Position numbers and translations under genes: made by a program. This document shows, one piece after another, positions 4,465 through 57,735 of a DNA stretch of 62,434 nucleotides; within the stretch, counting starts at the first letter, position 1, and each line of letters opens with the position of its first letter. Location of the stretch: contig JAGVXA010000012.1 of assembly GCA_018304025.1 (NCBI GenBank), positions 1 through 62,434 on the forward strand. Reading direction: 5' to 3'. The notes beneath the pieces are model-generated. The model had not been told where the DNA came from. It worked only from the letters and a program-made list of their open reading frames with translations, and searched no databases. Origin of the DNA: Candidatus Pacearchaeota archaeon (GTDB taxonomy: Archaea > Nanobdellota > Nanobdellia > Pacearchaeales > GW2011-AR1).

Positions 4465-4586
4465 TCTTTGTTGAAAATAAATTGGATTTCGGCGCGAATT
4501 GTCGTAACAGTGCGTAATTTGTTAGAAATTCACTTCGTGAATTTCGCGCGCCGAAATTAATTGTTTTTGATTTTTTCAACAAAGCC
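4465..4586. mobile_element. MITE, short copy (TIR CTTTGTTGAAAA / TTTTCAACAAAG) carrying one CGGCGCG palindromic unit
   Basis: 12-13 bp terminal inverted repeats at 4466-4477 and 4573-4584. Flanked by the direct repeat atttttctag (4455-4464 and 4587-4596). Near-identical to the outer parts of 32265..32586. Confidence 0.7.
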
Positions 4587-6464: not shown

Positions 6465-6482
6465 TCGTTAAAAAATATTTTT

Positions 6483-6634
6483 ACGCGATGCAATTGGACT
6501 CGCCTGTTTTTATTGGCAAGTCTTATCTGTAAAATTCACTCTGTTTCGGCACGCAATTGGATTTTGCTTCGCAAAATCTTTTCTGTAAAATTCGCTCCGC
6601 GAATTTGGCGTGCCGATGCGAATTTGCATCGCGT
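6483..6634. mobile_element. nested palindromic repeat units (outer arms CGCGATGC/GCATCGCG, inner unit 6547..6615 with arms CGGCACGC/GCGTGCCG)
   Basis: The inner 69-nt unit is identical to 22075..22143. The outer unit shares the AATTGGAC..GGCAAGTC..GTAAAATTC architecture with 36204.., 52768.. and 56035.. Confidence 0.65.
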
Positions 6635-6674
6635 AAATAGTTAAATTTATAATCTTTAAATTGTTTAATTTGGC

Positions 6675-7110: not shown

Positions 7111-7277
7111 GCTCCTATAGTCTAGTGGTCAAGGACGTCGCCCTCTCGACTGCCGAGATTTAAGTCGTTGAGATGATAATCTCTGCTCATCTTTGAGCAG
7201 GCACTTTGTTTAGCGCCTTGAGAATTTCTCAGGCACGGAGAACGGCGGAAACCCGAGTTCGAACCTCGGTAGGAGCA
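7111..7277 (+). tRNA. tRNA-Glu(CTC) with ~94-nt anticodon-loop intron (~7149..7242)
   Basis: GCTCCTA-TA-GTCT..GGAC-G-TCGCC-CTCTCG[intron]-GGCGG-AAAC-CCGAG-TTCGAAC-CTCGG-TAGGAGC-A. Confidence 0.85.
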
Positions 7278-7908: not shown

Positions 7909-8005
7909 GCCTCTATAGCTCAGCGGTAGAGTACTACCTTGGTAGAAAGATTGAAAATTTATTCCAAAAAGGTAGGGGTCCCGAGTTCAAGTCTCGGTAG
8001 AGGCT
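7909..8005 (+). tRNA. tRNA-Thr(GGT) with 25-nt intron (7945..7969)
   Basis: GCCTCTA-TA-GCTC..GAGT-A-CTACC-TTGGTA[intron]A-GGTAG-GGGTC-CCGAG-TTCAAGT-CTCGG-TAGAGGC-T. Confidence 0.85.
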
Positions 8006-21602: not shown

Positions 21603-23327
21603 CTATTCATATAAAATTCTCTTCTGCATTTTTTTCTCTGAGAAAGTTTTAGGAACGTAAATTTTCTTTTTTGTTCTGGGGTTCATTTCAGTATAATACA
21701 TGCAGGTTGAAACAGTCATTGGCGTCGGAGTAAATATCTGGATCTTCTCGGCGTTTTTAATTTTTTTCATGTAGCTTTTCAGCTCTTCTGCTTCTTTCAT
21801 AGAACTTCCCGGATGCGCTGCCATAAAATAGAAACTTAAATCTCCGCAATCAAGTTTTCTGAATTTTCTGATAAATTCATCGAGGTTTCCTCCAGATTTG
21901 TTCATTAATTTCAAAATTTCTGAATTAACATGCTCGGGAGCAATTTTTAACCTTCCTGAAATGTGATGTTTTAATTCTTTCAGATATTCGTCGTTAGCAA
22001 GTTCGTATCTTATTCCGCTTCTTATAAAAATCTTTTTTATTCCTTTAACTTTAGGTGTATAATTCGTTTTGTTTCGGCACGCAATTGGATTTTGCTTCGC
22101 AAAATCTTTTCTGTAAAATTCGCTCCGCGAATTTGGCGTGCCGAAGTTAATCTTTCTCGCTTTTTTTAAAAGTTCAATAAGTTTTTTATTGCTTCTGTCA
22201 AGTTTTTTGCATTCAAGACAGTTGTTTTTGCAGACGTATCTGGCTGGGCAGTCCATTCCGTACATATTTGCAGACGGGCCGCCGAAATCGTCGATGTTTC
22301 CCTTAAAATTCGGCAGAGAGGTTATATATTTTAGTTCTCTCAAAATAGAATCTTCGCTTCTTGAAATTATTTTGTCTCCTGAAGTCAGTCTTAGAGAACA
22401 GAAATTACAATTTCCTATACATCCTCGGTGCGTAACGACGCTGAATTCAAAACCTTTCATTTCTTTCAGGTTAATTTTTCTGCTAAACGGAAGCTCGTAG
22501 TATTTATCCAAATCTTCGGATTTATATTCGGGAAACATATACTGGAGAATGTAAAAGTTCCCTGTTTTTTGCGCAAGGTTTTCTTGATTAGAAAACATAT
22601 TTTGCATATCGCAGAATTTTTCTTTTGATTCGAGAACTTCTTCGTGGGACGGGAGTATTTTTGGTATATAATCTATTTCGTTTTCGGCACGCAATTGGAC
22701 GCCAATTGTAGCGGCTGGCGTCTTGTCTTTATGCAAAATTCCGGAGGAATTTTGCCGGCGTGCCGAATTAACTTGAAAATTCTTTGGAATTTCTCTTGTT
22801 CTGATGCATGTTCCTTTGATTCCTGAAATTTCTTTTTTATTTTTTATTCTCTCGGCGATTTCAAGCACTTGTTTTTCTCCATTTCCGTAGACGAGGATAT
22901 CTGCGCGCGTGTCAAAAAGGATTGATTTTCTCAGAGAGTTGCTCCAGTAATCGTAATGGGTGAATCTTCTTAATGTTGCTTCTGTTCCGCCGAGGACGAT
23001 TTTAGAATCTTTGAAATATTTTCTTACCCAGTTTGCGTAAACAATTACTGCCCTGTCCGGAACTGTTTTTTCGAAATTGAGATTTTCGTCGTTTTCCCTC
23101 GGCCTGTTAAGAGCAGAATAATTTCTTAACATTGAATCAATGCTGCCTGAAGTTATTCCGAAAAATAATTTTGGCTTTCCTAGACATAGAATATCTTTTT
23201 CGTTTTTTGGAGAGGGGATTATTCCGACTTTGTATCCTTCGCTTTCGAGGACTCTTTTTAGTATTGCTACTCCGCATAAAGGATGATCGTAGTATTCTGG
23301 TGTGATGAAAATAATGTCGTAATTCAT
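21603..23327 (-). CDS. ygiQ: YgiQ-family radical SAM protein carrying two in-frame palindromic-repeat insertions
   Basis: N-terminus YDIIFITPEYYDHPLCGVAIL, radical SAM CIGNCNFC, KGIKKIFIRSGIRYEL, HISGRLKIAPEH. All are collinear with UPF0313/YgiQ. Confidence 0.85.
   Translation of the reverse strand: MNYDIIFITPEYYDHPLCGVAILKRVLESEGYKVGIIPSPKNEKDILCLGKPKLFFGITSGSIDSMLRNYSALNRPRENDENLNFEKTVPDRAVIVYANWVRKYFKDSKIVLGGTEATLRRFTHYDYWSNSLRKSILFDTRADILVYGNGEKQVLEIAERIKNKKEISGIKGTCIRTREIPKNFQVNSARRQNSSGILHKDKTPAATIGVQLRAENEIDYIPKILPSHEEVLESKEKFCDMQNMFSNQENLAQKTGNFYILQYMFPEYKSEDLDKYYELPFSRKINLKEMKGFEFSVVTHRGCIGNCNFCSLRLTSGDKIISRSEDSILRELKYITSLPNFKGNIDDFGGPSANMYGMDCPARYVCKNNCLECKKLDRSNKKLIELLKKARKINFGTPNSRSEFYRKDFAKQNPIACRNKTNYTPKVKGIKKIFIRSGIRYELANDEYLKELKHHISGRLKIAPEHVNSEILKLMNKSGGNLDEFIRKFRKLDCGDLSFYFMAAHPGSSMKEAEELKSYMKKIKNAEKIQIFTPTPMTVSTCMYYTEMNPRTKKKIYVPKTFSEKKMQKRILYE
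22075..22143. mobile_element. 69-nt palindromic unit (CGGCACGC arms) inside the ygiQ coding sequence
   Basis: Identical to 6547..6615. Translated in-frame as GTPNSRSEFYRKDFAKQNPIACR. Confidence 0.75.
22685..22765. mobile_element. 81-nt palindromic unit (CGGCACGC arms) inside the ygiQ coding sequence
   Basis: Same arms and AATTGGAC start. Hairpins gacgcc/ggcgtc and caaaattcc/ggaattttg. Translated in-frame as ARRQNSSGILHKDKTPAATIGVQLRA. Confidence 0.7.
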
Positions 23328-24420: not shown

Positions 24421-24463
24421 ATGGGCCTGAAGAGAATCGAACTCCTGACTACTCGGTGTAAAC
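24421..24463 (-). repeat. exact copy of the tRNA-Val 3' half (anticodon loop to 3' end), att-like
   Basis: 43 nt identical to 25731..25773. No matching 5' half follows. Confidence 0.75.
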
Positions 24464-24514: not shown

Positions 24515-25555
24515 TTATTTAGGATTACAGTAAGATTCTTCTAATTCCTTAAGATAATATTTTGACCAAACAAGTGGACTGTCCATTACCCTCTGGTTAT
24601 CAAATCTTTTTAGATAGGTTTTGCCATCTGAAAACAAATGTTTTCTAAAAACAACTCCAGAGTAACCTTCAATAAAAGTAGGGTCTACCTCGCCTTTGCT
24701 ATACCAGTATCCGCATACATTAATATTTCCACGCACATTCTCTGGAATTAATTCTTTTACCTCAAGGCTATCAAGATAAAAAATATACTGTTTTTGTGGC
24801 AATCCTCCAAGTACAAGTTCATAAATTACAGCATCTCCTTCTGGAGACCATCTCGTAAATCCATAATTGTATCCCCAGCCATCATCCCAACCGCTTGAAT
24901 TGTTTACTGGAATTTTTGTATTAAACGCTTCTTCAAAAACTTTTTTCTCTTCCCTAGTTTCTAAATCGTAAATGAATATCTCGACATGCTGAGTCTGATT
25001 TTTATAAATATCCTCTCCGTAAGTGTATCGTACCCTATCAAATAAAATTTTATCTTCCGTAGAGGATATTCCTAATAAATTACTGATATTTTTACTTACT
25101 ATAAAAAATTCTTGGTTATCAAGGTCATAGCCATAAATATTCTTTTCTGGTCGTGCAAGAATGCCAGTCTTATTATTCACGTATGTTTCAAATGAAGACT
25201 CTTCTGTTTCAAAAAATAAGAATTTCTTGTCTTTAGACAAATGGAGACCAGTTGTACTAACAATATAACAATAATCTAACTTTGTTAAAAGCATTTCTTT
25301 TTCAGAATTAATATTTTTTAGATAAACTTGGCAAGAGCGATCATTATATTTGTCTGTTATTCCTTCTCTTTTAGTAAACAAAACATTTTCTCCGTCTAAA
25401 GTTATTCTTTGAAAAGAATCCCCTTTTTGCCAATTAATATAAAGAAACGGCTTTTCCAAAAGTGGACCTGGAGTTATTAGAGAATAAAACACAACTGAAA
25501 ATATAGCAACCAAAATCAAAATTATAAAAAAGATAATAATCAATTTTTTGCCCAT
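24515..25555 (-). CDS. hypothetical N-terminally membrane-anchored protein
   Basis: The track start is TTG. The ATG at 25555 gives MGKKLIIIFFIILILVAIFSVVF. Confidence 0.6.
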   Translation of the reverse strand: MGKKLIIIFFIILILVAIFSVVFYSLITPGPLLEKPFLYINWQKGDSFQRITLDGENVLFTKREGITDKYNDRSCQVYLKNINSEKEMLLTKLDYCYIVSTTGLHLSKDKKFLFFETEESSFETYVNNKTGILARPEKNIYGYDLDNQEFFIVSKNISNLLGISSTEDKILFDRVRYTYGEDIYKNQTQHVEIFIYDLETREEKKVFEEAFNTKIPVNNSSGWDDGWGYNYGFTRWSPEGDAVIYELVLGGLPQKQYIFYLDSLEVKELIPENVRGNINVCGYWYSKGEVDPTFIEGYSGVVFRKHLFSDGKTYLKRFDNQRVMDSPLVWSKYYLKELEESYCNPK

Positions 25556-25598
25556 GGAGGATGAAAACAAATCTAATTTATAAATCCTTTGAAAATGA

Positions 25599-25650
25599 GC
25601 GGCCCCGAAGAGAATCGAACTGGTGAATACTCGGTGTAAACAAATGTATC
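25599..25650 (-). repeat. degenerate third copy of the tRNA-Val 3' half
   Basis: gcggccccgaagagaatcgaactggtgaatactcggtgtaaacaaatgtatc. It shares the extra aaatgtatc extension with the copy at 24421. The T-stem is broken. Confidence 0.5.
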
Positions 25651-25731
25651 ATAAAGATTCTATTATGTTACATTTTACCAATTTCTTGGTGTGATTCGCT
25701 TGAACCGAGCAATCTATCCCTTTAATTTATA

Positions 25732-25802
25732 TGGGCCTGAAGAGAATCGAACTCCTGACTACTCGGTGTAAACGAGTCATTTTGCCACTAGACTACAGGC
25801 CC
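25732..25802 (-). tRNA. tRNA-Val(TAC)
   Basis: GGGCCTG-TA-GTCT..-ACTCG-TTTACAC-CGAGT-AGTC-AGGAG-TTCGATT-CTCTT-CAGGCCC-A. 71 nt, weak D-stem. Confidence 0.85.
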
Positions 25803-25895
25803 ATATTATTCATGAGAAATTAGCGGTTTTAAATTTATTGTTTGAAAAATTATTTATGACAATCTTTAAATAACTCTTGTTTTTATTTCACTTGA

Positions 25896-26039
25896 GCGAT
25901 ATTAGTTAAGTGGCAGAACGACACGTTGCCAATGTCCAACTTTCTTTAGAAAAGAAAGTTCGGCGCTCAAAGAAACTAATATAGTCTTTGAGAGCAGAGC
26001 AAAAACGTGTAAACCGGGGTTCGATTCCCCGATATCGCA
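25896..26039 (+). tRNA. tRNA-Gly(GCC) with 73-nt intron (25932..26004)
   Basis: GCGATAT-TA-GTT..AAC-G-ACACG-TTGCCA[intron]A-CGTGT-AAAC-CGGGG-TTCGATT-CCCCG-ATATCGC-A. Confidence 0.85.
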
Positions 26040-26040
26040 T

Positions 26041-26100
26041 ATGTCCAACTTTCTTTAGAAAAGAAAGTTCGGCGCTCAAAGAAACTAATATCGTCTCTGT
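26041..26100 (+). repeat. 3' trailer copy of the first ~52 nt of the tRNA-Gly intron
   Basis: atgtccaactttctttagaaaagaaagttcggcgctcaaagaaactaatat is identical at 25932.. and 26041... It contains a 10-bp hairpin and aactaatatcg, the antisense of tRNA nt 2-12. Confidence 0.8.
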
Positions 26101-26177
26101 GAGGATTAGTTCAACTTTTTAGAATTCAATTCAATAAAAAATAAAAATAAAATAAATACAGAAAAATAAATTAAAAA

Positions 26178-29119: not shown

Positions 29120-29269
29120 TCCCCCCACCCAGATTCGAACTGGGGATCTTCCGGGGTCTGCTTTCGCAAACCGTTCAATGGCCGGCTTGTCACGTTTCAT
29201 TCTAATCCAACAGGAATGTCCACGCTAGTTTTCTACAGCCAGACGCTCTAACCACTGAGCTATGGGAGG
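29120..29269 (-). tRNA. tRNA-Tyr(GTA) with ~77-nt intron (~29155..29232)
   Basis: CCTCCCA-TA-GCTC-AGTGGTTA-GAGC-G-TCTGG-CTGTAG[intron]-CCGGA-AGATC-CCCAG-TTCGAAT-CTGGG-TGGGGGG-A. The C1-G72 pair is typical of archaeal tRNA-Tyr. Confidence 0.85.
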
Positions 29270-31511: not shown

Positions 31512-31709
31512 GGTATAAGATGTAAGGGGGAATTATATAAATATTGCTGTACTAATTTGTCCCTACATAAATATGACTATTTTGTGGCGCAAATTTAGTG
31601 CGCCGAATTATTAATAATGACTACGGTAATTAATATAGATATATTTGTTAAAATTGTTCACGTTGTTTATAGAATTTTAAAAAAGATTAAGGTTATGCAG
31701 AAATGCTAC

Positions 31710-32264: not shown

Positions 32265-32586
32265 GCTTTGTTGAAAATATTTTTTAGAGTTATCTTGCTC
32301 CCCACCCACTCGCGATCACGTTCGTCATTTGCTTGTTTTTTACTCGAACGTGATGCGCTCGCCACGCCCTACTTGTCCAAATCTTCTTCGCTTCGCTCAG
32401 AAGAAAAACTTTCGTTTTTCATTCGTCCGCCAAGATGTCGAACGAAAGATTTGGTTATTTGGTGCAAGATAACTAAATTAAATTGGATTTCGGCGCGAAT
32501 TGTCGTAACAGTGCGTAATTTGTTAGAAATTCACTTCGTGAATTTCGCGCGCCGAAATTAATTGTTTTTGACTTTTTCAACAAAGC
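32265..32586. mobile_element. MITE, long copy: same TIRs as 4465..4586, with a further ~187-nt palindromic element (32288..32474) nested inside
   Basis: Perfect 13-bp TIR gctttgttgaaaa/ttttcaacaaagc. 11-bp direct repeat cccttacgaag at 32254-32264 and 32587-32597. Confidence 0.75.
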
Positions 32587-32589
32587 CCC

Positions 32590-33569: not shown

Positions 33570-33974
33570 ATGAAATACGAATTTTTAGAACACACTGCTG
33601 ACGTTAAATTCCGGGCTTACGGGAAAAACTTGGGAGAATGTTTTGAAAATGTTATTTTAGCATTCAGCGAAATTATTGCAAAGGGCAACAAGATAACTCC
33701 GACGGAAGTTAGGAATATTTCTGTCAAGGGAATTGACAAGAAAAGTCTTTTTTATAAATTTTTGGAGGAGTTGAATTATTTGGCGGAGGGCGGGTTTGTT
33801 GTTTGCTCGGGGAAAGTTAATGTGACGGGGAATTCTCTGAAAGCTAAATTGTATGGAGATTCTGCGGGGAATTATTCTGGTTTGGGAGAGGTAAAAGCTG
33901 CGACTTATGCCGAGATGAGGATTAGCAAGAAGAGCGCTAAGAGATGGCTTGTGCAGGCTGTGCTGGATGTCTGA
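33570..33974 (+). CDS. archease (RtcB activator)
   Basis: MKYEFLEHTADVKFRAYG... and C-terminal KAATYAEM are typical of archease. Confidence 0.85.
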   Translation: MKYEFLEHTADVKFRAYGKNLGECFENVILAFSEIIAKGNKITPTEVRNISVKGIDKKSLFYKFLEELNYLAEGGFVVCSGKVNVTGNSLKAKLYGDSAGNYSGLGEVKAATYAEMRISKKSAKRWLVQAVLDV

Positions 33975-34736: not shown

Positions 34737-36131
34737 ATGGGAAACATTCATGAAATAAAACAGACGGGGAAGATGCTTGTGCCTGGAATTGTTTTTGCGT
34801 CGGATAAACTTTTTGAAGATATGAAAAAAGACAAGACGCTTGAACAAGTTAAAAACGTAGCTCAGCTTCCAGGAATTATCGACAAAAGCATTGCGATGCC
34901 TGACGCGCATGAGGGCTATGGATTTTGTATTGGTGGTGTTGCTGCTTTTGACGTCGAGAAAGGAGTTGTTTCTCCGGGCGGCGTTGGATATGATATTAAT
35001 TGCTCGGTTCGGCTGCTTCGGACTAATCTAAAATCTTCTGATGTCAAAAACTGGAAAGAAATTTTGCATTCGCTTTTTCGTTGCGTGCCGTCTGGTGTCG
35101 GGCAGGGCTCGAAATTAAAATTAAGCGACGCGGAACTTAATGAAGTTTTGAGCAACGGCGCGCAGTGGGCTGTTGAAAAAGGATACGGCGTTAAGGAAGA
35201 TTATTTGCATACAGAAGATGAAGGGAGATTGAATGGGGGGAATCCGAAAGATATTTCGCAAAGGGCTCGGGCTAGAGGGAAAGGGCAGTTGGGGACATTG
35301 GGGGCGGGGAATCATTTTTTGGAAATTCAAGTTGTTGATGAAGTTTTTGACGAGGAGATTGCTAAAACATTTGGATTGAAAAAAGGAGAAGTTACAATAA
35401 TGGTTCATTGCGGCTCTCGGGGGCTTGGGCATCAAGTTGCTTCGGATTACATTCAAGAGATGGAGAAGAAGATTGGAGTTGCTGGATTGCCGGATAGAGA
35501 ATTAGTCAATGCGCCGATTAAATCTGAACTCGGCGGAAAATATTTATCGGCGATGGCGTGCGCTGCGAATTTTGCGTTTGCGAATAAACAATTAATTACG
35601 CATTGGATTAGAGAGGATTTGAAGCATTATTTTCCGAAGATAAAAATTGAAGTTGTCTATGATGTCTGCCATAATATTGCTAAATTCGAGAAGCATTTTG
35701 TTGATGGGCATGATAAAGAAGTTTTGGTTATGAGGAAAGGAGCTACTCGGGCTTTTGGACCTGGGCGGGCGGAGATTCCTGCGGATTATCGTTCAGTTGG
35801 ACAGCCTGTTATTTTACCTGGCTCGATGGGAACTTCTTCTTATGTTTTAGTTGGTACTAAGGAATCTGAAAAATTAAGCTGGGGTTCGACAGCGCATGGC
35901 GCAGGGAGATTGATGAGCCGCTCTGCTGCGAAGAAAAAATTGAATGCAGGCGATGTTAAACGGAAGATGAGTGAGCAGGGGATTATTTTGGAGTCTGGTT
36001 CTACTGCTGGAATTGTTGAAGAAGCTGCTGAGGCGTACAAAGATGTTGATGAAGTTGTGCGGGTGTCTGATGAGTTGGGGATTGGGAAAATGGTTGTTAG
36101 ATTAAAGCCGTTGGCTGTGATGAAGGGATAA
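34737..36131 (+). CDS. rtcB: RNA-splicing ligase RtcB
   Basis: MPDAHEGYGFCIGGV, GYDINCSVR, GAGNHFLE, HCGSRGLGHQ, HGAGR. Confidence 0.93.
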   Translation: MGNIHEIKQTGKMLVPGIVFASDKLFEDMKKDKTLEQVKNVAQLPGIIDKSIAMPDAHEGYGFCIGGVAAFDVEKGVVSPGGVGYDINCSVRLLRTNLKSSDVKNWKEILHSLFRCVPSGVGQGSKLKLSDAELNEVLSNGAQWAVEKGYGVKEDYLHTEDEGRLNGGNPKDISQRARARGKGQLGTLGAGNHFLEIQVVDEVFDEEIAKTFGLKKGEVTIMVHCGSRGLGHQVASDYIQEMEKKIGVAGLPDRELVNAPIKSELGGKYLSAMACAANFAFANKQLITHWIREDLKHYFPKIKIEVVYDVCHNIAKFEKHFVDGHDKEVLVMRKGATRAFGPGRAEIPADYRSVGQPVILPGSMGTSSYVLVGTKESEKLSWGSTAHGAGRLMSRSAAKKKLNAGDVKRKMSEQGIILESGSTAGIVEEAAEAYKDVDEVVRVSDELGIGKMVVRLKPLAVMKG

Positions 36132-36203
36132 GATTATTTGGATAGAACCAGAAATTTTTATGGAGAGAATAATTAGTGAATTAACATCGAGAAATTAATC
36201 TTT

Positions 36204-36346
36204 CTCGGCGCGCAAATTGGACTTGCATAAGAACACCTTCTCGGTTTTCTTACCAACTTTCCCCTTGCGATACTGCTCATGGCTGATTCTTGCGGCTGGC
36301 AAGTCTTATTGTTAACAGCTCACTCCGTTCGCTGGTGCGCACCGAG
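36204..36346. mobile_element. palindromic repeat unit (arms CTCGGCGCGC/GCGCACCGAG) with ~85-nt loop insert shared with 52790..52870
   Basis: AAATTGGACTTGC...GGCAAGTC architecture. Flanked by tcgagaaatt (left) and aatttccgagaattt (right) outer arms. Confidence 0.6.
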
Positions 36347-36448
36347 CAATTTCCGAGAATTTTGTCATAACGAGATTAAATTAGATTAGGTTTATAGCAA
36401 ATAGAAATTTCCGAGAATTTAATTAGACAATTAATTTGAAGCGACAAA

Positions 36449-48496: not shown

Positions 48497-49411
48497 TCAT
48501 TTTACCAGCAGACTAGCTCCGATTGTGCCGGGATGCCTTAGGCGCGAGAATTCTATAGGGGTTGCGTGCGGGAGAATAGAGTATTTTTTCGCTGATTGTT
48601 TTATTTTATTCAGGAGAGGAGCGCCTGCTTCTGTAAATCCGCCGTTTATCACAATTACTTCTGGGTCGAATACATTTATCAGAGAGCCGAGCCCTTGTCC
48701 GATGTAATCATACGTTTCTTCCAAAATTTCTTTTGCTTTTTTATCATCCATTTTTATCAGTTCGGAAATTAACAGGTCTTTTTTGAATGTTTCTTTTATT
48801 TTCTTTTTTGTGTCCTGCCAGAGCGTTTCGAAGAATTTCCCGTCTTGAAGTATTATGTGTCCGAGTTCGCCTGCGAATTTTCTTCCCGTGTAAATATTTT
48901 TTTCGATTACAATTCCTCCGCCAATTCCTGTGCCGAATGCAATTACAATGAAATTTTTTTTCTTTACTCCGAGTGTTTTTTCTGCGAGAGTTATGCAGTG
49001 CACGTCGTTTTCAATTGCTACTTTTCTCTTGAATTTGGTTTCTAAATGTTTTTTTAGATTGAAATTTTTCAGCGGGATGTTTGGGGGGTTTTTTATTATG
49101 CCGTTTTCCAACGGTCCGGGGGAACCCATTCCAATTGCTTTCACGTCTTTGTCAATTAAGGAATCTATTGTATTGTCTAATAGTGCTAGGAGTTCTTCTT
49201 TTGTTTTCGGAGTAATGTTTTTTATGTATTTTATTATTTTATTTCCTTCTACTAAAGCGACTCTTAGGTTGGTTCCGCCGAGATCTACTGCAATGACTTT
49301 TGGTATGTTAACTCTGCTTTTTTTCGGCGCGAATTGTCGTGACAATTCGTTATCTTTATGAAAATTCGCGGAGCGAATTTTCTGCGCGCCGAAATTAATT
49401 TGATTATTCAT
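48497..49411 (-). CDS. ROK-family glucokinase
   Basis: AVDLGGTNLRVA, GTGIGGGIV, GELGH. The first ~30 codons run through a palindromic repeat unit. Confidence 0.8.
   Translation of the reverse strand: MNNQINFGAQKIRSANFHKDNELSRQFAPKKSRVNIPKVIAVDLGGTNLRVALVEGNKIIKYIKNITPKTKEELLALLDNTIDSLIDKDVKAIGMGSPGPLENGIIKNPPNIPLKNFNLKKHLETKFKRKVAIENDVHCITLAEKTLGVKKKNFIVIAFGTGIGGGIVIEKNIYTGRKFAGELGHIILQDGKFFETLWQDTKKKIKETFKKDLLISELIKMDDKKAKEILEETYDYIGQGLGSLINVFDPEVIVINGGFTEAGAPLLNKIKQSAKKYSILPHATPIEFSRLRHPGTIGASLLVK
49325..49391. mobile_element. 67-nt palindromic unit (CGGCGCG arms) at the 5' end of the glucokinase gene
   Basis: cggcgcg-gaattgtc gtg acaattc-..-aaaattcgc gga gcgaatttt-..cgcgccg. Same family as 4490..4553. 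Confidence 0.65.
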
Positions 49412-51683: not shown

Positions 51684-51757
51684 TAAATCTTAATTTGATA
51701 GAGTTTAGATAGGAAAGGTTTTTAATAACTGGATATTAGATTATTTAGAAAAAGAAG

Positions 51758-52738
51758 ATGAATATAGCAATAAACGGATTCGGGAGAATTGGAAGAGCTG
51801 TGTTTAAAATAGCGCTGGAAAAGGGGATGCATATTGTCGCGATTAATGATTTGTCCGACGTGAAAGATTTGGCTTATTTGTTAAAATATGATTCTGTTTA
51901 CGGACGTTATGACAAGAAAGTCGGAATTAAAGGAGGAGATTTGGAAATTAATGGGAAGGTTGTTAAAGTTCTTGCTGAAAAAGACCCTTTGAATTTGCCG
52001 TGGAAAAAACTCGGAGTTGATGTTGTTATTGAATCAACTGGTTTTTTTACAGATAGGATAGGGGCTGAGAAACATTTGAAAGCTGGCGCGAAATTTGTTT
52101 TGATAACTGCTCCTGCCAAGAATCCTGATGCGACGATTGTTTTGGGAGTTAACGACGGAGATTTAAAAAAAGAACATAAGATTATTTCTGCTGCTTCCTG
52201 CACGACGAATTGCCTTGCGCCGATTGTGAAAGTTCTTGATGATAATTTTGGAATAGAACAGGGGATTATGACGACGGTTCACGCTTACACGAATGATCAG
52301 GTTGTGCATGACCAAGTTCACAGAAAAATGCGCCGGGGGCGGGCAGCAGGATTGAATATTATTCCTACTACGAGTGGGGCGAGCGAGGCGATTAACGCTG
52401 TTATTCCGAGATTAAAGGGGAGGATTGACGGCTTGGCTTTGCGAGTTCCTGTTTCTGTGGGTTCTATTGTTGATTTTTCTGCGAGGTTGAAAAGACCTGC
52501 GGATGCTGCGAAAATAAATGAGGCGATGAAGAAAGCAGCGCAAGGGACGATGAAAGGAATTTTGGATTATACTGAAGATGAAATTGTTTCTTCTGACGTG
52601 ATTGGTACGACTTGCTCGTCGTTGTTTGATGCTACTGGGACGATAGTTCTGGGTGATTTAGTAAAGGTATTTTCCTGGTATGATAATGAGTATGGGTATT
52701 CGTGCAGAGTTGTGGATGTTGTTAGGATGCTGAGGTAA
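51758..52738 (+). CDS. gap: glyceraldehyde-3-phosphate dehydrogenase, type I (bacterial/eukaryal class), copy 1
   Basis: INGFGRIGR, SCTTNCLAP, WYDNEYGYS. Confidence 0.92.
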   Translation: MNIAINGFGRIGRAVFKIALEKGMHIVAINDLSDVKDLAYLLKYDSVYGRYDKKVGIKGGDLEINGKVVKVLAEKDPLNLPWKKLGVDVVIESTGFFTDRIGAEKHLKAGAKFVLITAPAKNPDATIVLGVNDGDLKKEHKIISAASCTTNCLAPIVKVLDDNFGIEQGIMTTVHAYTNDQVVHDQVHRKMRRGRAAGLNIIPTTSGASEAINAVIPRLKGRIDGLALRVPVSVGSIVDFSARLKRPADAAKINEAMKKAAQGTMKGILDYTEDEIVSSDVIGTTCSSLFDATGTIVLGDLVKVFSWYDNEYGYSCRVVDVVRMLR

Positions 52739-52767: not shown

Positions 52768-53032
52768 CGCTGCGTGACGCATTTGGACTTTTGTAAGAAC
52801 CCTTCTCGGTTTCTTACCAACTTCCCCTTGCAATACGTTCAAGGCTGATTTTTTGCTGCTGGCAAGTCTTATCAGTAAAATTCGCTCTTGATGCGTCGCA
52901 ATTGGACTTGCCAATTCTTGTCGCTGGCAAGTCTTATCGGTAAAATTCGCTCTTGATGCGTCGCAATTGGACTGTAAAATTCGCTCCGCGAATTTAGCGA
53001 CGCATCAACTCCGCGAATTTAGCGCGCCGAAC
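52768..53032. mobile_element. composite of at least three nested/tandem palindromic units
   Basis: The segment ggcaagtcttatc.gtaaaattcgctcttgatgcgtcgcaattggac occurs twice in tandem. Arms gatgcgtcgc/gcgacgcatc. Terminal gcgaatttagcgcgccga. Confidence 0.6.
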
Positions 53033-55859: not shown

Positions 55860-56034
55860 GATAGAATCGAGATTTTATATGGAGGTAATTGTCGGGATAG
55901 ATTCGAGAAATTTAGGAAGAAGATAATTAATAGTTGTTTTATGAGATAATTAATTTTAGGGAATAATTATCTGGATAGAATCGAGAGTTTTAGGAAGAAG
56001 ATAATTATCTGGATAGAATCGAGAAATTGCTCTT
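55860..56034. repeat. four irregularly spaced copies of GATAGAATCGAGA(A/G)(A/T)TT(TAGGAAGAAGATAATTATCTG)
   Basis: Copies start at 55860, 55896, 55974 and 56012. Related ataattat.tggatagaa.c.agaaatt motifs lie at 36131.., 61901.. and 16024.. Confidence 0.55.
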
Positions 56035-56123
56035 CTCGGCGCGCATTTGGACGCACAATTTTATTCGGCTGTGCGTCTTATCATTAACCAAATTCACTTC
56101 GTGAATTTGGAGAGCGCGCCGAG
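56035..56123. mobile_element. 89-nt palindromic unit (arms CTCGGCGCGC/GCGCGCCGAG)
   Basis: atttggacgcac...gtgcgtc hairpin and caaattcac ttc gtgaatttg hairpin. Followed by two aatttccgag.atttt motifs. Confidence 0.6.
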
Positions 56124-56574: not shown

Positions 56575-56754
56575 AAACAAAAATGATTAAAATTCTATAT
56601 AAATATATCGAAAGCTTCAAATTGAGTCCGAGTAATATTGCACATAACTAAAATTTTAGAATTATTCTGATATAGAAATTTCCGAAAGGTTTGGATAAAA
56701 TTTGAAGAGGAAAGGTTTTTAATAACTGGATATTAGATTATTTAGAAAAAGAAG

Positions 56755-57735
56755 ATGAATATAGCAATAAACGGATTCGGGCGAATTGGAAGAGCTGTGT
56801 TTAAGATTGCGCTGGAGAAGGGGATGCACATCGCCGCGATTAATGATTTGTCTGACGTGAAAAATCTTGCTTACTTGCTGAAATATGATTCTGTCTACGG
56901 ACGCTACGACAAGAAAGTCGAAGTCAAGGGAGGAGATTTAGAAATTAACGGCAAGATAATTAAAGTTCTTGCTGAAAAAGATCCTTTGAATTTGCCGTGG
57001 AAAAAACTCGGAGTTGATGTTGTTATTGAATCAACTGGTTTTTTCACGGACAAGACCGGAGCTGAAAAACATTTGAAAGCTGGCGCGAAATTTGTTTTGA
57101 TAACTGCTCCTGCCAAGAATCCTGATGCGACGATTGTCTTGGGAGTTAACGACGGTGATTTGAAAAAAGAGCATAAAATTATTTCTGTTGCTTCCTGCAC
57201 GACGAATTGTCTTGCGCCGATTGTGAAAGTTCTGGATGATAATTTTGGGATAGAGCAGGGGATTATGACGACTGTTCATGCTTACACGAATGACCAAGTT
57301 GTGCACGATCAGGTTCATAAAAAAATGAGGCGCGGGAGGGCTGCGGGCTTGAACATTATTCCTACTACGAGCGGCGCGAGCGAGGCGATTAATGCTGTTA
57401 TTCCGAGATTAAAGGGGCGGATTGATGGGTTGGCTTTGCGAGTTCCTGTTTCAGTTGGTTCTATTGTTGATTTTTCTGCGAGGTTGAAAAGACCTGCGGA
57501 TGCTGAGAGAATAAACGCGGCGATGAAGAAGGCTTCGATGGGCGCGATGAAAGGAATTTTGGATTATACTGAGGATGAGATTGTTTCTACTGATGTGATT
57601 GGGACTTCGTGCTCGTCGCTGTTTGACGCTACCGGGACAATTGTGATAGGGGATTTAGTCAAAGTATTTTCTTGGTATGATAATGAGTATGGGTATTCGT
57701 GCAGAGTTGTGGATGTTGTTAAGATGCTTCGTTAA
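56755..57735 (+). CDS. gap: glyceraldehyde-3-phosphate dehydrogenase, type I, copy 2
   Basis: Same length as copy 1, with about 20 amino-acid differences. The upstream 47 nt are identical. Confidence 0.92.
   Translation: MNIAINGFGRIGRAVFKIALEKGMHIAAINDLSDVKNLAYLLKYDSVYGRYDKKVEVKGGDLEINGKIIKVLAEKDPLNLPWKKLGVDVVIESTGFFTDKTGAEKHLKAGAKFVLITAPAKNPDATIVLGVNDGDLKKEHKIISVASCTTNCLAPIVKVLDDNFGIEQGIMTTVHAYTNDQVVHDQVHKKMRRGRAAGLNIIPTTSGASEAINAVIPRLKGRIDGLALRVPVSVGSIVDFSARLKRPADAERINAAMKKASMGAMKGILDYTEDEIVSTDVIGTSCSSLFDATGTIVIGDLVKVFSWYDNEYGYSCRVVDVVKMLR

Follow-up and report, generated by a model that had tools for sequence, protein, structure and literature searches.

The window analysed here is a stretch of 62,434 nucleotides, contig JAGVXA010000012.1 of the Candidatus Pacearchaeota assembly GCA_018304025.1, with a G+C content of 38%. 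It derives from groundwater metagenomes, the contig recurring in at least 15 runs, and the nearest named relatives of two of its proteins are Pacearchaeota, Nanoarchaeota and Woesearchaeota. DPANN archaea, among which this Pacearchaeota-like host belongs, are uncultured organisms with very small genomes, and the forces that shape their genomes are poorly known. Among and within the genes of the window lies a family of short palindromic repeats, here called Y units, all of which fold into a common three-way junction. The family is very probably a mobile or recently mobile, non-autonomous one, because identical or 98% identical copies sit in unrelated flanks, insertions are absent from orthologues, relatives lack the units, and read depth over a unit greatly exceeds that of its flanks.

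Anatomy and copies of the Y units

A complete element is about 100–115 bp long and asymmetric, being made up of a left segment, a core and a right tail. The left segment of ~22 nt is A+T-rich and starts (A/T)GGTRTATAAT. The core, 65–95 nt, is the three-way junction, in which a GC-rich closing stem of 9–12 bp surrounds AATTG, hairpin 1, the linker TTATC and hairpin 2 (AAATTCNC/GNGAATTT), and the right tail of ~11 nt ends in TTAAYTTG or a close variant. Four insertions could be delimited, two in a YgiQ gene, one in a ROK sugar-kinase gene and one unit in the hairpin-1 loop of another unit in L018, a sequence outside the window. All four consist of the core with ~22 nt on its left and ~11 nt on its right, and the same left segment and right tail flank most intergenic copies. 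Since the inserted DNA extends this far beyond the core, the GC-rich arms are internal and not terminal. At the left junction TAAYTTT is followed directly by GGTATATAAT, while at the right TTAAYTTG immediately precedes the boundary. The feet of the stems carry TTCGG (arms), AATTG (hairpin 1) and, before hairpin 2 in some copies only, [TG]GTA. The hairpin-1 loop is conserved (ATTTT..GCGGCT), and terminal loops are the only places where units carry extra sequence.

The hairpin-2 motif occurs 7 times in the window where 0.05 occurrences are expected. A covariance model built from 17 units matches at 4488, 6545, 22073, 22683, 32489, 49323, 52895 and 56035 (E 1e-7 to 1e-19), with a decayed unit at 36264 (E 0.01); the window scan was also rerun with filters off. 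The total is 9–12 units, ~12 with nested and remnant copies included, or ~190 per Mb. The copies are as follows, with scores from this model.

4474–4586, + strand: unit of the short-hairpin-1 subfamily (core 4486–4557) between two + strand genes; hairpin 1 partly decayed; 59 bits, E 2e-13; fold z -5.1
6480–6637, + strand: nested pair; outer arms TTTACGCGATGCAA/TTGCATCGCGTAAA, with a complete inner unit (6545–6617, 63 bits) in the outer hairpin-2 loop
22047–22148, + strand: YgiQ insertion 1, 102 nt; 5' segment AGGTGTATAATTCGTTTTGT, core 22073–22145, tail AAGTTAATCTT; 69 bits; boundaries ambiguous by ~3 nt
22662–22775, + strand: YgiQ insertion 2, 114 nt; 5' segment TGGTATATAATCTATTTCGTT, core 22683–22767, tail AATTAACTTG; 68 bits; fold z -5.2
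31583–31607, + strand: arms-only remnant, GGCGCA-AATTTAG-TGCGCC then GAATTATTAAT; weak match, E 3.9
32475–32587, + strand: second copy of the 4474–4586 unit, between two minus-strand genes and antisense to local transcription
36204–36346, + strand: decayed unit; arms CTCGGCGCGC/GTGCGCACCGAG; hairpin 2 degenerate; E 0.012–0.023
49301–49402, + strand: ROK insertion, 102 nt, core 49322–49394; 67 bits
52768–53032, + strand: composite of three units, two of them with arms TTGATGCGTCGC and nested in hairpin-2 loops; 38–46 bits
56035–56123, + strand: intact unit; hairpin 1 GACGCACA/TGTGCGTC; best match of the window, 83 bits; fold z -7.8

The 113-nt stretches 4474–4586 and 32475–32587 are 98% identical, and the 69-nt cores at 6546–6616 and 22075–22143 are identical, the flanks being unrelated in both cases. 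The nested pair at 6480–6637 shows in the inverted-repeat listing as a 14-nt perfect inverted repeat with further repeats inside it, and the remnant at 31583–31607 is a unit with an internal deletion, or else a footprint. Other repeats intrude as well. A foreign repeat of ~65 nt occupies the hairpin-1 loop of the decayed unit (36217–36309) and that of the outer unit of the composite, whose innermost unit (~52953–53008) is without hairpin 1. The intact unit at 56035–56123 itself occupies the loop of another hairpin repeat (GAGAAATT.../...AATTTCCGAG).

The ~65-nt repeat (AAGAACACCTTCTCGGTTTTCTTACCAACTTTCCCCTTGCGATACTGCTCATGGCTGATTC) was found at 36217–36309, at 52783–52872 and at ~5560–5730 of L031, so far only in hairpin-1 loops of Y units. 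A third repeat is the hairpin ATCGAGAAATT..C-loop-G..AATTTCCGAGAAT, which has tandem copies upstream of 56035 (55860–56030). Its loop hosts the Y units at 56035 and 36204 (in the latter case 36185–36203 with 36347–36365), and an uninterrupted copy lies in L022 (~385–420).

An earlier note on this DNA had listed ten loci with one shared architecture, and reading of the sequence confirmed all ten at their coordinates. The stem pairs that it quoted for hairpins 1 and 2 are correct, and the nesting of units in hairpin loops is seen at 6483–6634 and 52768–53032. The plan that it drew is present at every locus but extends further than described, the conserved 5' segment and 3' tail having been overlooked. 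The abundance of the family likewise stands; that three of the insertions lie inside coding sequence, and that orientation is strictly linked to GC skew, had gone unnoticed.

Pairing, targets, orientation and surroundings

Every unit folds into the common three-way junction, with z between -4.4 and -7.8 and on either strand. As MAFFT failed to hold the hairpin-1 stems in register, 23 distinct units were segmented by fold by hand and the pairs counted by script. Canonical pairs fill 97% of the 595 stem cells in these units, against 68 ± 1% in column shuffles and 22–45% with slid partners, in an alignment whose fitting to the structure somewhat favours pair statistics. Changes on both sides are found in 25 of the 31 pairs, 150 cells are double-changed where shuffles give 42 ± 5, and none of 500 shuffles reaches the observed values. 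The claim that stems differ between copies and yet stay paired is thus borne out. Hairpin 1 alone exists in eight unrelated, perfectly paired versions (GACTTGCC, GACGCACA, GATTTTGC, GACGCCA, GATTCGC, CTGTTTGAC, AAATTTGC and AATTGTC), and paired variation is found in hairpin 2 and the arms too. From one subfamily to another, 60% of positions differ in the hairpin-1 stems and only 11% in the AATTG junction; within subfamilies loops differ more than stems. Pairing is a property of subfamily founders, the differences in pairing lying between subfamilies, and either selection among source copies or a repair that corrects palindromes would fit these differences equally well.

The four delimited insertions are preceded on the top strand by AATAATTTT, TTTAACTTT, AATAACTTT and CCAGTTTT, that is, by TAAYTTT or a T-run, the chance of TTT before a random position being 0.06. 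The right ends of the elements (TTAACTTG, TTAATCTT, TTAATTTG, TAAATTTA) resemble this target. No consistent target duplication was found across the four, and YgiQ site 1 has none. A TTAA or TA duplication fits YgiQ site 2 only, where TTAA can be so read, and neither site 1 nor the ROK site. A 7–8-bp duplication of TAAYTTT was also rejected: the heptamers on the two sides disagree at 2 of 7 positions and vary independently within a locus, and being uncorrelated in this way they are not a target duplication. The junctions lie ~22 nt (left) and ~11 nt (right) from the foot of the closing stem. Such a pattern is what a strand-transferase cutting 3' of one short motif at both junctions would leave.

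Three of the insertions lie in frame within genes. The YgiQ radical-SAM open reading frame (ORF; 21603–23327, minus strand, 574 residues) contains two clean insertions of 38 and 34 residues, both absent from its homologues P0002 (76% identity) and P0003 (73%), the empty-site DNA being that of L040 and L041. Around insertion 1 (102 nt, 34 codons) the Pfam domains resume on both sides; insertion 2 (114 nt, 38 codons) lies between the TTTT and AAAA of the empty site. The ROK gene (48497–49411, minus strand) carries an in-frame insertion of 102 nt, 34 codons, after codon 3, so that its ORF reads MNN[QINFG...VNIP]KVIAVDLGGT. In 115 of 119 ROK homologues DLGGT or DIGGT is found 7–24 residues from the start (7–16 in all but two), as against 43 in the window ORF. 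The homologues inspected begin M..NK(V/I)IAVDLGGT, and the DNA of the relatives L045–L047 is uninterrupted. The three coding insertions are multiples of three, stop-free and antisense to the top strand of the element, and two share a frame (INFG...), the predicted junction peptides including ...ARKINFGTPNSR... and ...MNNQINFGAQK... The intact frames suggest that the inserts would be read through as 34, 34 and 38 extra codons. They also distort gene calls, the ROK gene having been called from an internal TTG inside the element.

A HMMER search of 1.84 billion representative proteins found the insert peptide in no gene other than the same one, so that in-frame copies belonging to this subfamily and read in this frame are not widespread among called proteins. 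The DNA reads of four groundwater samples contained no empty-site variant of the YgiQ insertions. An AlphaFold2 model of YgiQ, made with a 9-sequence alignment, had a mean pLDDT (predicted local distance difference test) of 46, too poor to place the inserts as surface loops. Archaeal bulge-helix-bulge introns were considered and rejected, since the arms form an unbroken helix without 3-nt bulges and the open frames favour read-through.

Unrelated hairpin insertions, also in frame, were seen in other DPANN YgiQ genes. In P0040 (L042 1220–2833) an insert of 75 nt with two hairpins occupies the codon position of window insert 2, and P0006 (L043 5663–7255), P0038 and P0098 (L044 159–1859) have a common hairpin insert near insert 1, flanked by a repeated KEKFCD coding segment. 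Either YgiQ loops tolerate extra peptide unusually well, or genic palindromic insertions are common in these lineages.

All units of the window lie on the + strand, and with filters off every minus-strand match of the covariance model proved to be a weaker mirror of a + unit. Co-oriented sets comprise at least 9 units in the window, three in L031/L039, three in tandem in L030 and two each in L022 and L028. Five of the window units lie among or inside minus-strand genes, and orientation is therefore not tied to transcription. It follows base composition instead, the top strand of the element being the G-rich strand on 11 of 11 contigs (GC skew +0.09 to +0.38). Skew at third codon positions is likewise positive on all 11. 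Genes on the opposite strand average a skew of about zero rather than a negative one, which indicates a strand-wide component beyond the coding effect. The usual rule equates the G-rich strand with the leading strand, whose sequence is the same as that of the lagging-strand template.

Outside the window, a scan of Joint Genome Institute metagenomes yielded ten contigs (GC 32–39%) with 18 further units and new stem variants. In four groundwater samples the contig depth over the unit 22073–22145 is 8–10 times that of the flanks. L022 carries an orthologue of the 56035 copy that is 93% identical, with an empty carrier hairpin nearby. At the site orthologous to 6480–6637 (L028 1928–2014, flanks 80–86% identical) stands a unit whose arms and hairpin 1 are entirely different, a difference that would imply that the one site was replaced or repeatedly targeted and did not change by point-mutational drift. 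The covariance model found no unit in the nearest relatives, L040, L041 and L045–L047 (five loci, 61 kb, 70–76% protein identity). A motif scan of representative genomes gave 13 loci, none of them of the family, the single matches being taken as chance without being read; thus either the representative genomes do not include the species, or its repeats there are different. Viral contigs gave no match to the family. From these searches the family appears to be lineage-restricted and narrow in distribution. The only representative genome with several matches to the scan pattern was CANQOJ01, a Clostridia metagenome-assembled genome from rabbit gut, with six contigs. The copy read there (L002) is a hairpin AAATTCGC-nnn-GCGAATTT followed by GCGCGCCG, in another GC-rich (47% G+C) palindromic context and unrelated to the family.

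Several other features of the window deserve mention. Anticodon-loop introns are present in four of its seven tRNA genes (7111–7277, 7909–8005, 25896–26039 and 29120–29269, with cmscan inserts of 27–97 nt), and ARAGORN missed the intron-bearing genes. One intron segment, 25932–25994, recurs with 95% identity at 26041–26103, just downstream of its tRNA, and genes for the RtcB ligase (34737–36131) and archease (33570–33974) are in the window too. The 3' 43 nt of a minus-strand tRNA-Val have an exact repeat 1.3 kb away and another at 92% (24421–24463, 25607–25656, 25731–25803). These repeats bracket an ORF of 351 aa without Pfam match (24515–25570), and the arrangement looks like the att-type repeats of a small element integrated in a tRNA gene. 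GAPDH (glyceraldehyde-3-phosphate dehydrogenase) is encoded twice, at 51711–52731 and 56708–57728, 5 kb apart and with 90% nucleotide identity; between the copies lie Y units and a gene for a large protein of secreted type.

Mode of movement and its alternatives

The explanation that we favour is a mobile DNA element, non-autonomous and restricted to one lineage, which an enzyme of the HUH/Y1 type would move in trans as single-stranded DNA. As a whole it seems to us about as apt to be right as wrong, and the single-strand or HUH mechanism, taken on its own, is put forward tentatively, with rather less than even confidence. Both its excision and its insertion would take place in single-stranded form on the lagging-strand template. 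A trans-acting HUH/Y1-type nuclease-ligase, similar to the TnpA of IS200/IS605 or to a RAYT, the transposase associated with repetitive extragenic palindromes (REPs), would recognise the core in its folded form and cut both junctions 3' of TAAYTTK. Stems would vary between subfamilies and still pair if only foldable source copies were mobilised. This 'peel and paste' of single-stranded DNA fits better than double-strand movement by a DDE transposase because the strand is locked, the 5' target comes without duplication, the ends are asymmetric and non-complementary, and the family depends on its fold and not on its sequence. Among the mechanisms that the earlier note had left side by side, hairpin-dependent single-strand mobilisation has gained from the strand lock on 11 of 11 contigs, the target without duplication and the asymmetric linkers; for a structured RNA no support was found, Rfam giving no match.

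A number of observations weigh against this explanation. Pfam scans of about 50 window ORFs and 36 ORFs of related contigs (~110 kb) found no transposase, integrase or HUH domain, in keeping with the earlier statement that the window has no transposase gene. The units have one compound structure closed by a long stem, as against the two subterminal hairpins of IS200/IS605, and no complementarity between a guide and the cleavage site was identified in the element. Of the single mismatches 9 are G.T and 6 are A.C, as the 1:1 ratio of neutral change would predict, and nothing in them points to one strand as the folded one or to RNA. The selection on a folded single-stranded DNA or RNA that had been read from the covariation is thus not shown for individual copies. 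The target rule comes from four events, one with a boundary ambiguous by ~3 nt and another, in the ROK gene, with a boundary taken from orthologues at 70–74% protein identity. A nested junction in 52768–53032 (~52950/53008) has a 3-nt CTC repeat. Two nested insertions (6545–6617 and 56035–56123) comprise the core only, without 5' segment and tail, so the mobilised segment is not constant. Finally, to place the top strand of the element on the lagging-strand template is to assume that the GC-skew rule holds for this host.

The alternative that survives best is a classical MITE, or miniature inverted-repeat transposable element, cut and pasted as double-stranded DNA, with high specificity for a TTAA-like, A+T-rich target, by a DDE transposase whose gene lies elsewhere. 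MITEs are frequent in the genomes of DPANN archaea, 105 per Mb being reported for one Woesearchaeal genome (PMC11602168), and in-frame insertions of MITEs are known (PMC10969869). The arms of the Y units are long inverted repeats such as a MITE would have, and both the TTAA reading of YgiQ site 2 and the CTC repeat at ~52950/53008 may be counted in its favour. However, in the three coding insertions the arms are internal, and the outer ~22 and ~11 nt are not complementary; YgiQ site 1 is without duplication, the heptamers are unmatched within loci, and a double-strand mechanism does not predict co-orientation on 11 of 11 contigs. We regard a MITE as an unlikely answer.

The units could also be small structured RNA genes, or RNA modules acting in cis as stabiliser, terminator or riboregulator, with their spread as DNA secondary. 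Covarying stems, the conserved AATTG, TTATC and hairpin-1 loop, and the confinement of extra sequence to terminal loops all accord with this, and the 5' segment GGTATATAAAT may be akin to an archaeal TATA box. In archaea the TATA box usually lies ~25 nt from the start site, a spacing that would put any start dictated by the TATA-like box within the 5' arm and so destroy the closing stem. The orientation of units tracks the chromosome strand and not the neighbouring genes, five lying within minus-strand genes or antisense to them; G.U mismatches are not in excess over A.C, and many copies are decaying. In Rfam 15 only tRNAs reach the gathering score, and no family matches the units in earnest even at E<10, the best hit over them (E 1.2) being to an unrelated long non-coding RNA model. 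Metatranscriptomes from the same studies contained nothing from the organism, so they neither support nor refute an RNA, which we hold to be decidedly improbable. Some particular structures were considered and set aside: a hammerhead or other self-cleaving ribozyme, because the junction sequences do not match and Rfam gives no hit; a tRNA-like element, called neither by ARAGORN nor by the tRNA model; and an integron attC array or a CRISPR, the spacing being irregular and associated genes lacking.

A domesticated element, kept not by continuing transposition but by selection for an orientation-dependent structural role in replication or chromosome handling, in the manner of polar sequences or of REP sites to which host proteins bind, is slightly more improbable again. 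It would account for the strict tie to GC skew, for the density of the units along the window, for the better conservation of stems than loops within subfamilies, and for the unit kept at one intergenic site in two species with a different core. The element is lacking over 61 kb of close relatives, so that it has no conserved role in the cell, and some copies are decaying (36204, 4486, L031b); the coding insertions and the nesting are typical of selfish spread. As for chance similarity or simple segmental duplication within the contig, for which the two near-identical copy pairs (4474/32475 and 6546/22075) are all that could be cited, it is refuted by the motif count, by model matches down to E 1e-19, by the unrelated flanks and by members on ten contigs from other samples, and its probability is negligible; the local segmental duplicates that the earlier note had allowed for are not what was found.

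Significance and comparison with known systems

The Y units amount to ~2% of the window. Orientation by replication strand together with a defined target would make the element a case in which single-strand transposition coupled to replication can be seen directly in archaea, a domain in which the mechanism has received little study, and the orientation of units could mark replichore direction in fragmented metagenome assemblies. The in-frame insertions suggest that selfish palindromes can be a source of added peptide segments for proteins in archaea, as they are in Rickettsia. In the literature searched, neither the Y structure nor its strand lock was found described, nor were in-frame insertions in archaea. 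It is conceivable, though we lean towards doubting it, that the family is the first archaeal counterpart of the single-strand systems of the REP/RAYT or IS200 type in bacteria, a DPANN lineage having evolved a compact Y-shaped DNA substrate with both end signals on a single fold, copied at the fork by an undescribed HUH-like or other single-strand enzyme, and benign as 34–38 extra residues in enzymes of essential pathways.

The closest likeness is to the ends and derivatives of the IS200/IS605 family, which is present in archaea (PMC3597680). The Y units share with them the lack of terminal inverted repeats at the true ends and of a target duplication, insertion 3' of a short conserved sequence, and a right end that resembles the target. 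The left linker is the longer, as it always is in IS200/IS605, at ~22 and ~11 nt here and 19 and 10 nt in IS608 (PMC3597680). The fold rather than the sequence is conserved, and orientation is biased to one replication strand, the active strand of IS200/IS605 being biased to the lagging-strand template (PMC5027513, PMC6006769). Unlike IS200/IS605, the Y units have a single three-way junction with a 9–12-bp GC-rich stem, guide complementarity was not recognised, and no tnpA or tnpB was found nearby.

With REPs, bacterial interspersed mosaic elements (BIMEs) and REPINs the family shares GC-rich palindromes in high copy number, several subfamilies in one genome, and clusters or tandem sets (three units in L030). 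REPs inside tnpA-REP genes are reported to be occasionally inserted in frame without disrupting the gene (PMC6006769). The family is nevertheless not REP proper: the feet lack the GT[AG]G tetranucleotide, the units are Ys of 65–95 nt and not hairpins of 20–40 nt, all are co-oriented and never form inverted doublets, the host is archaeal, and no RAYT was seen in the window or related contigs.

In behaviour only, the Y units also resemble the Rickettsia palindromic elements. These are ~100–150 bp long and lie in frame in housekeeping genes that are unrelated, where read-through adds peptide to the product (PMC10969869); here 3 of ~12 units are inserted in frame (34, 34 and 38 codons). The differences are the unrelated host domain and the fact that all three insertions are antisense to the top strand of the element. 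Integron attC sites, lastly, are imperfect palindromes set by structure, like the Y units, and are used as folded, orientation-specific single strands. Unlike attC sites, the Y units form no cassette arrays, being spaced 0.5–15 kb apart among housekeeping genes, with no integrase found and no R''/R' core sites.

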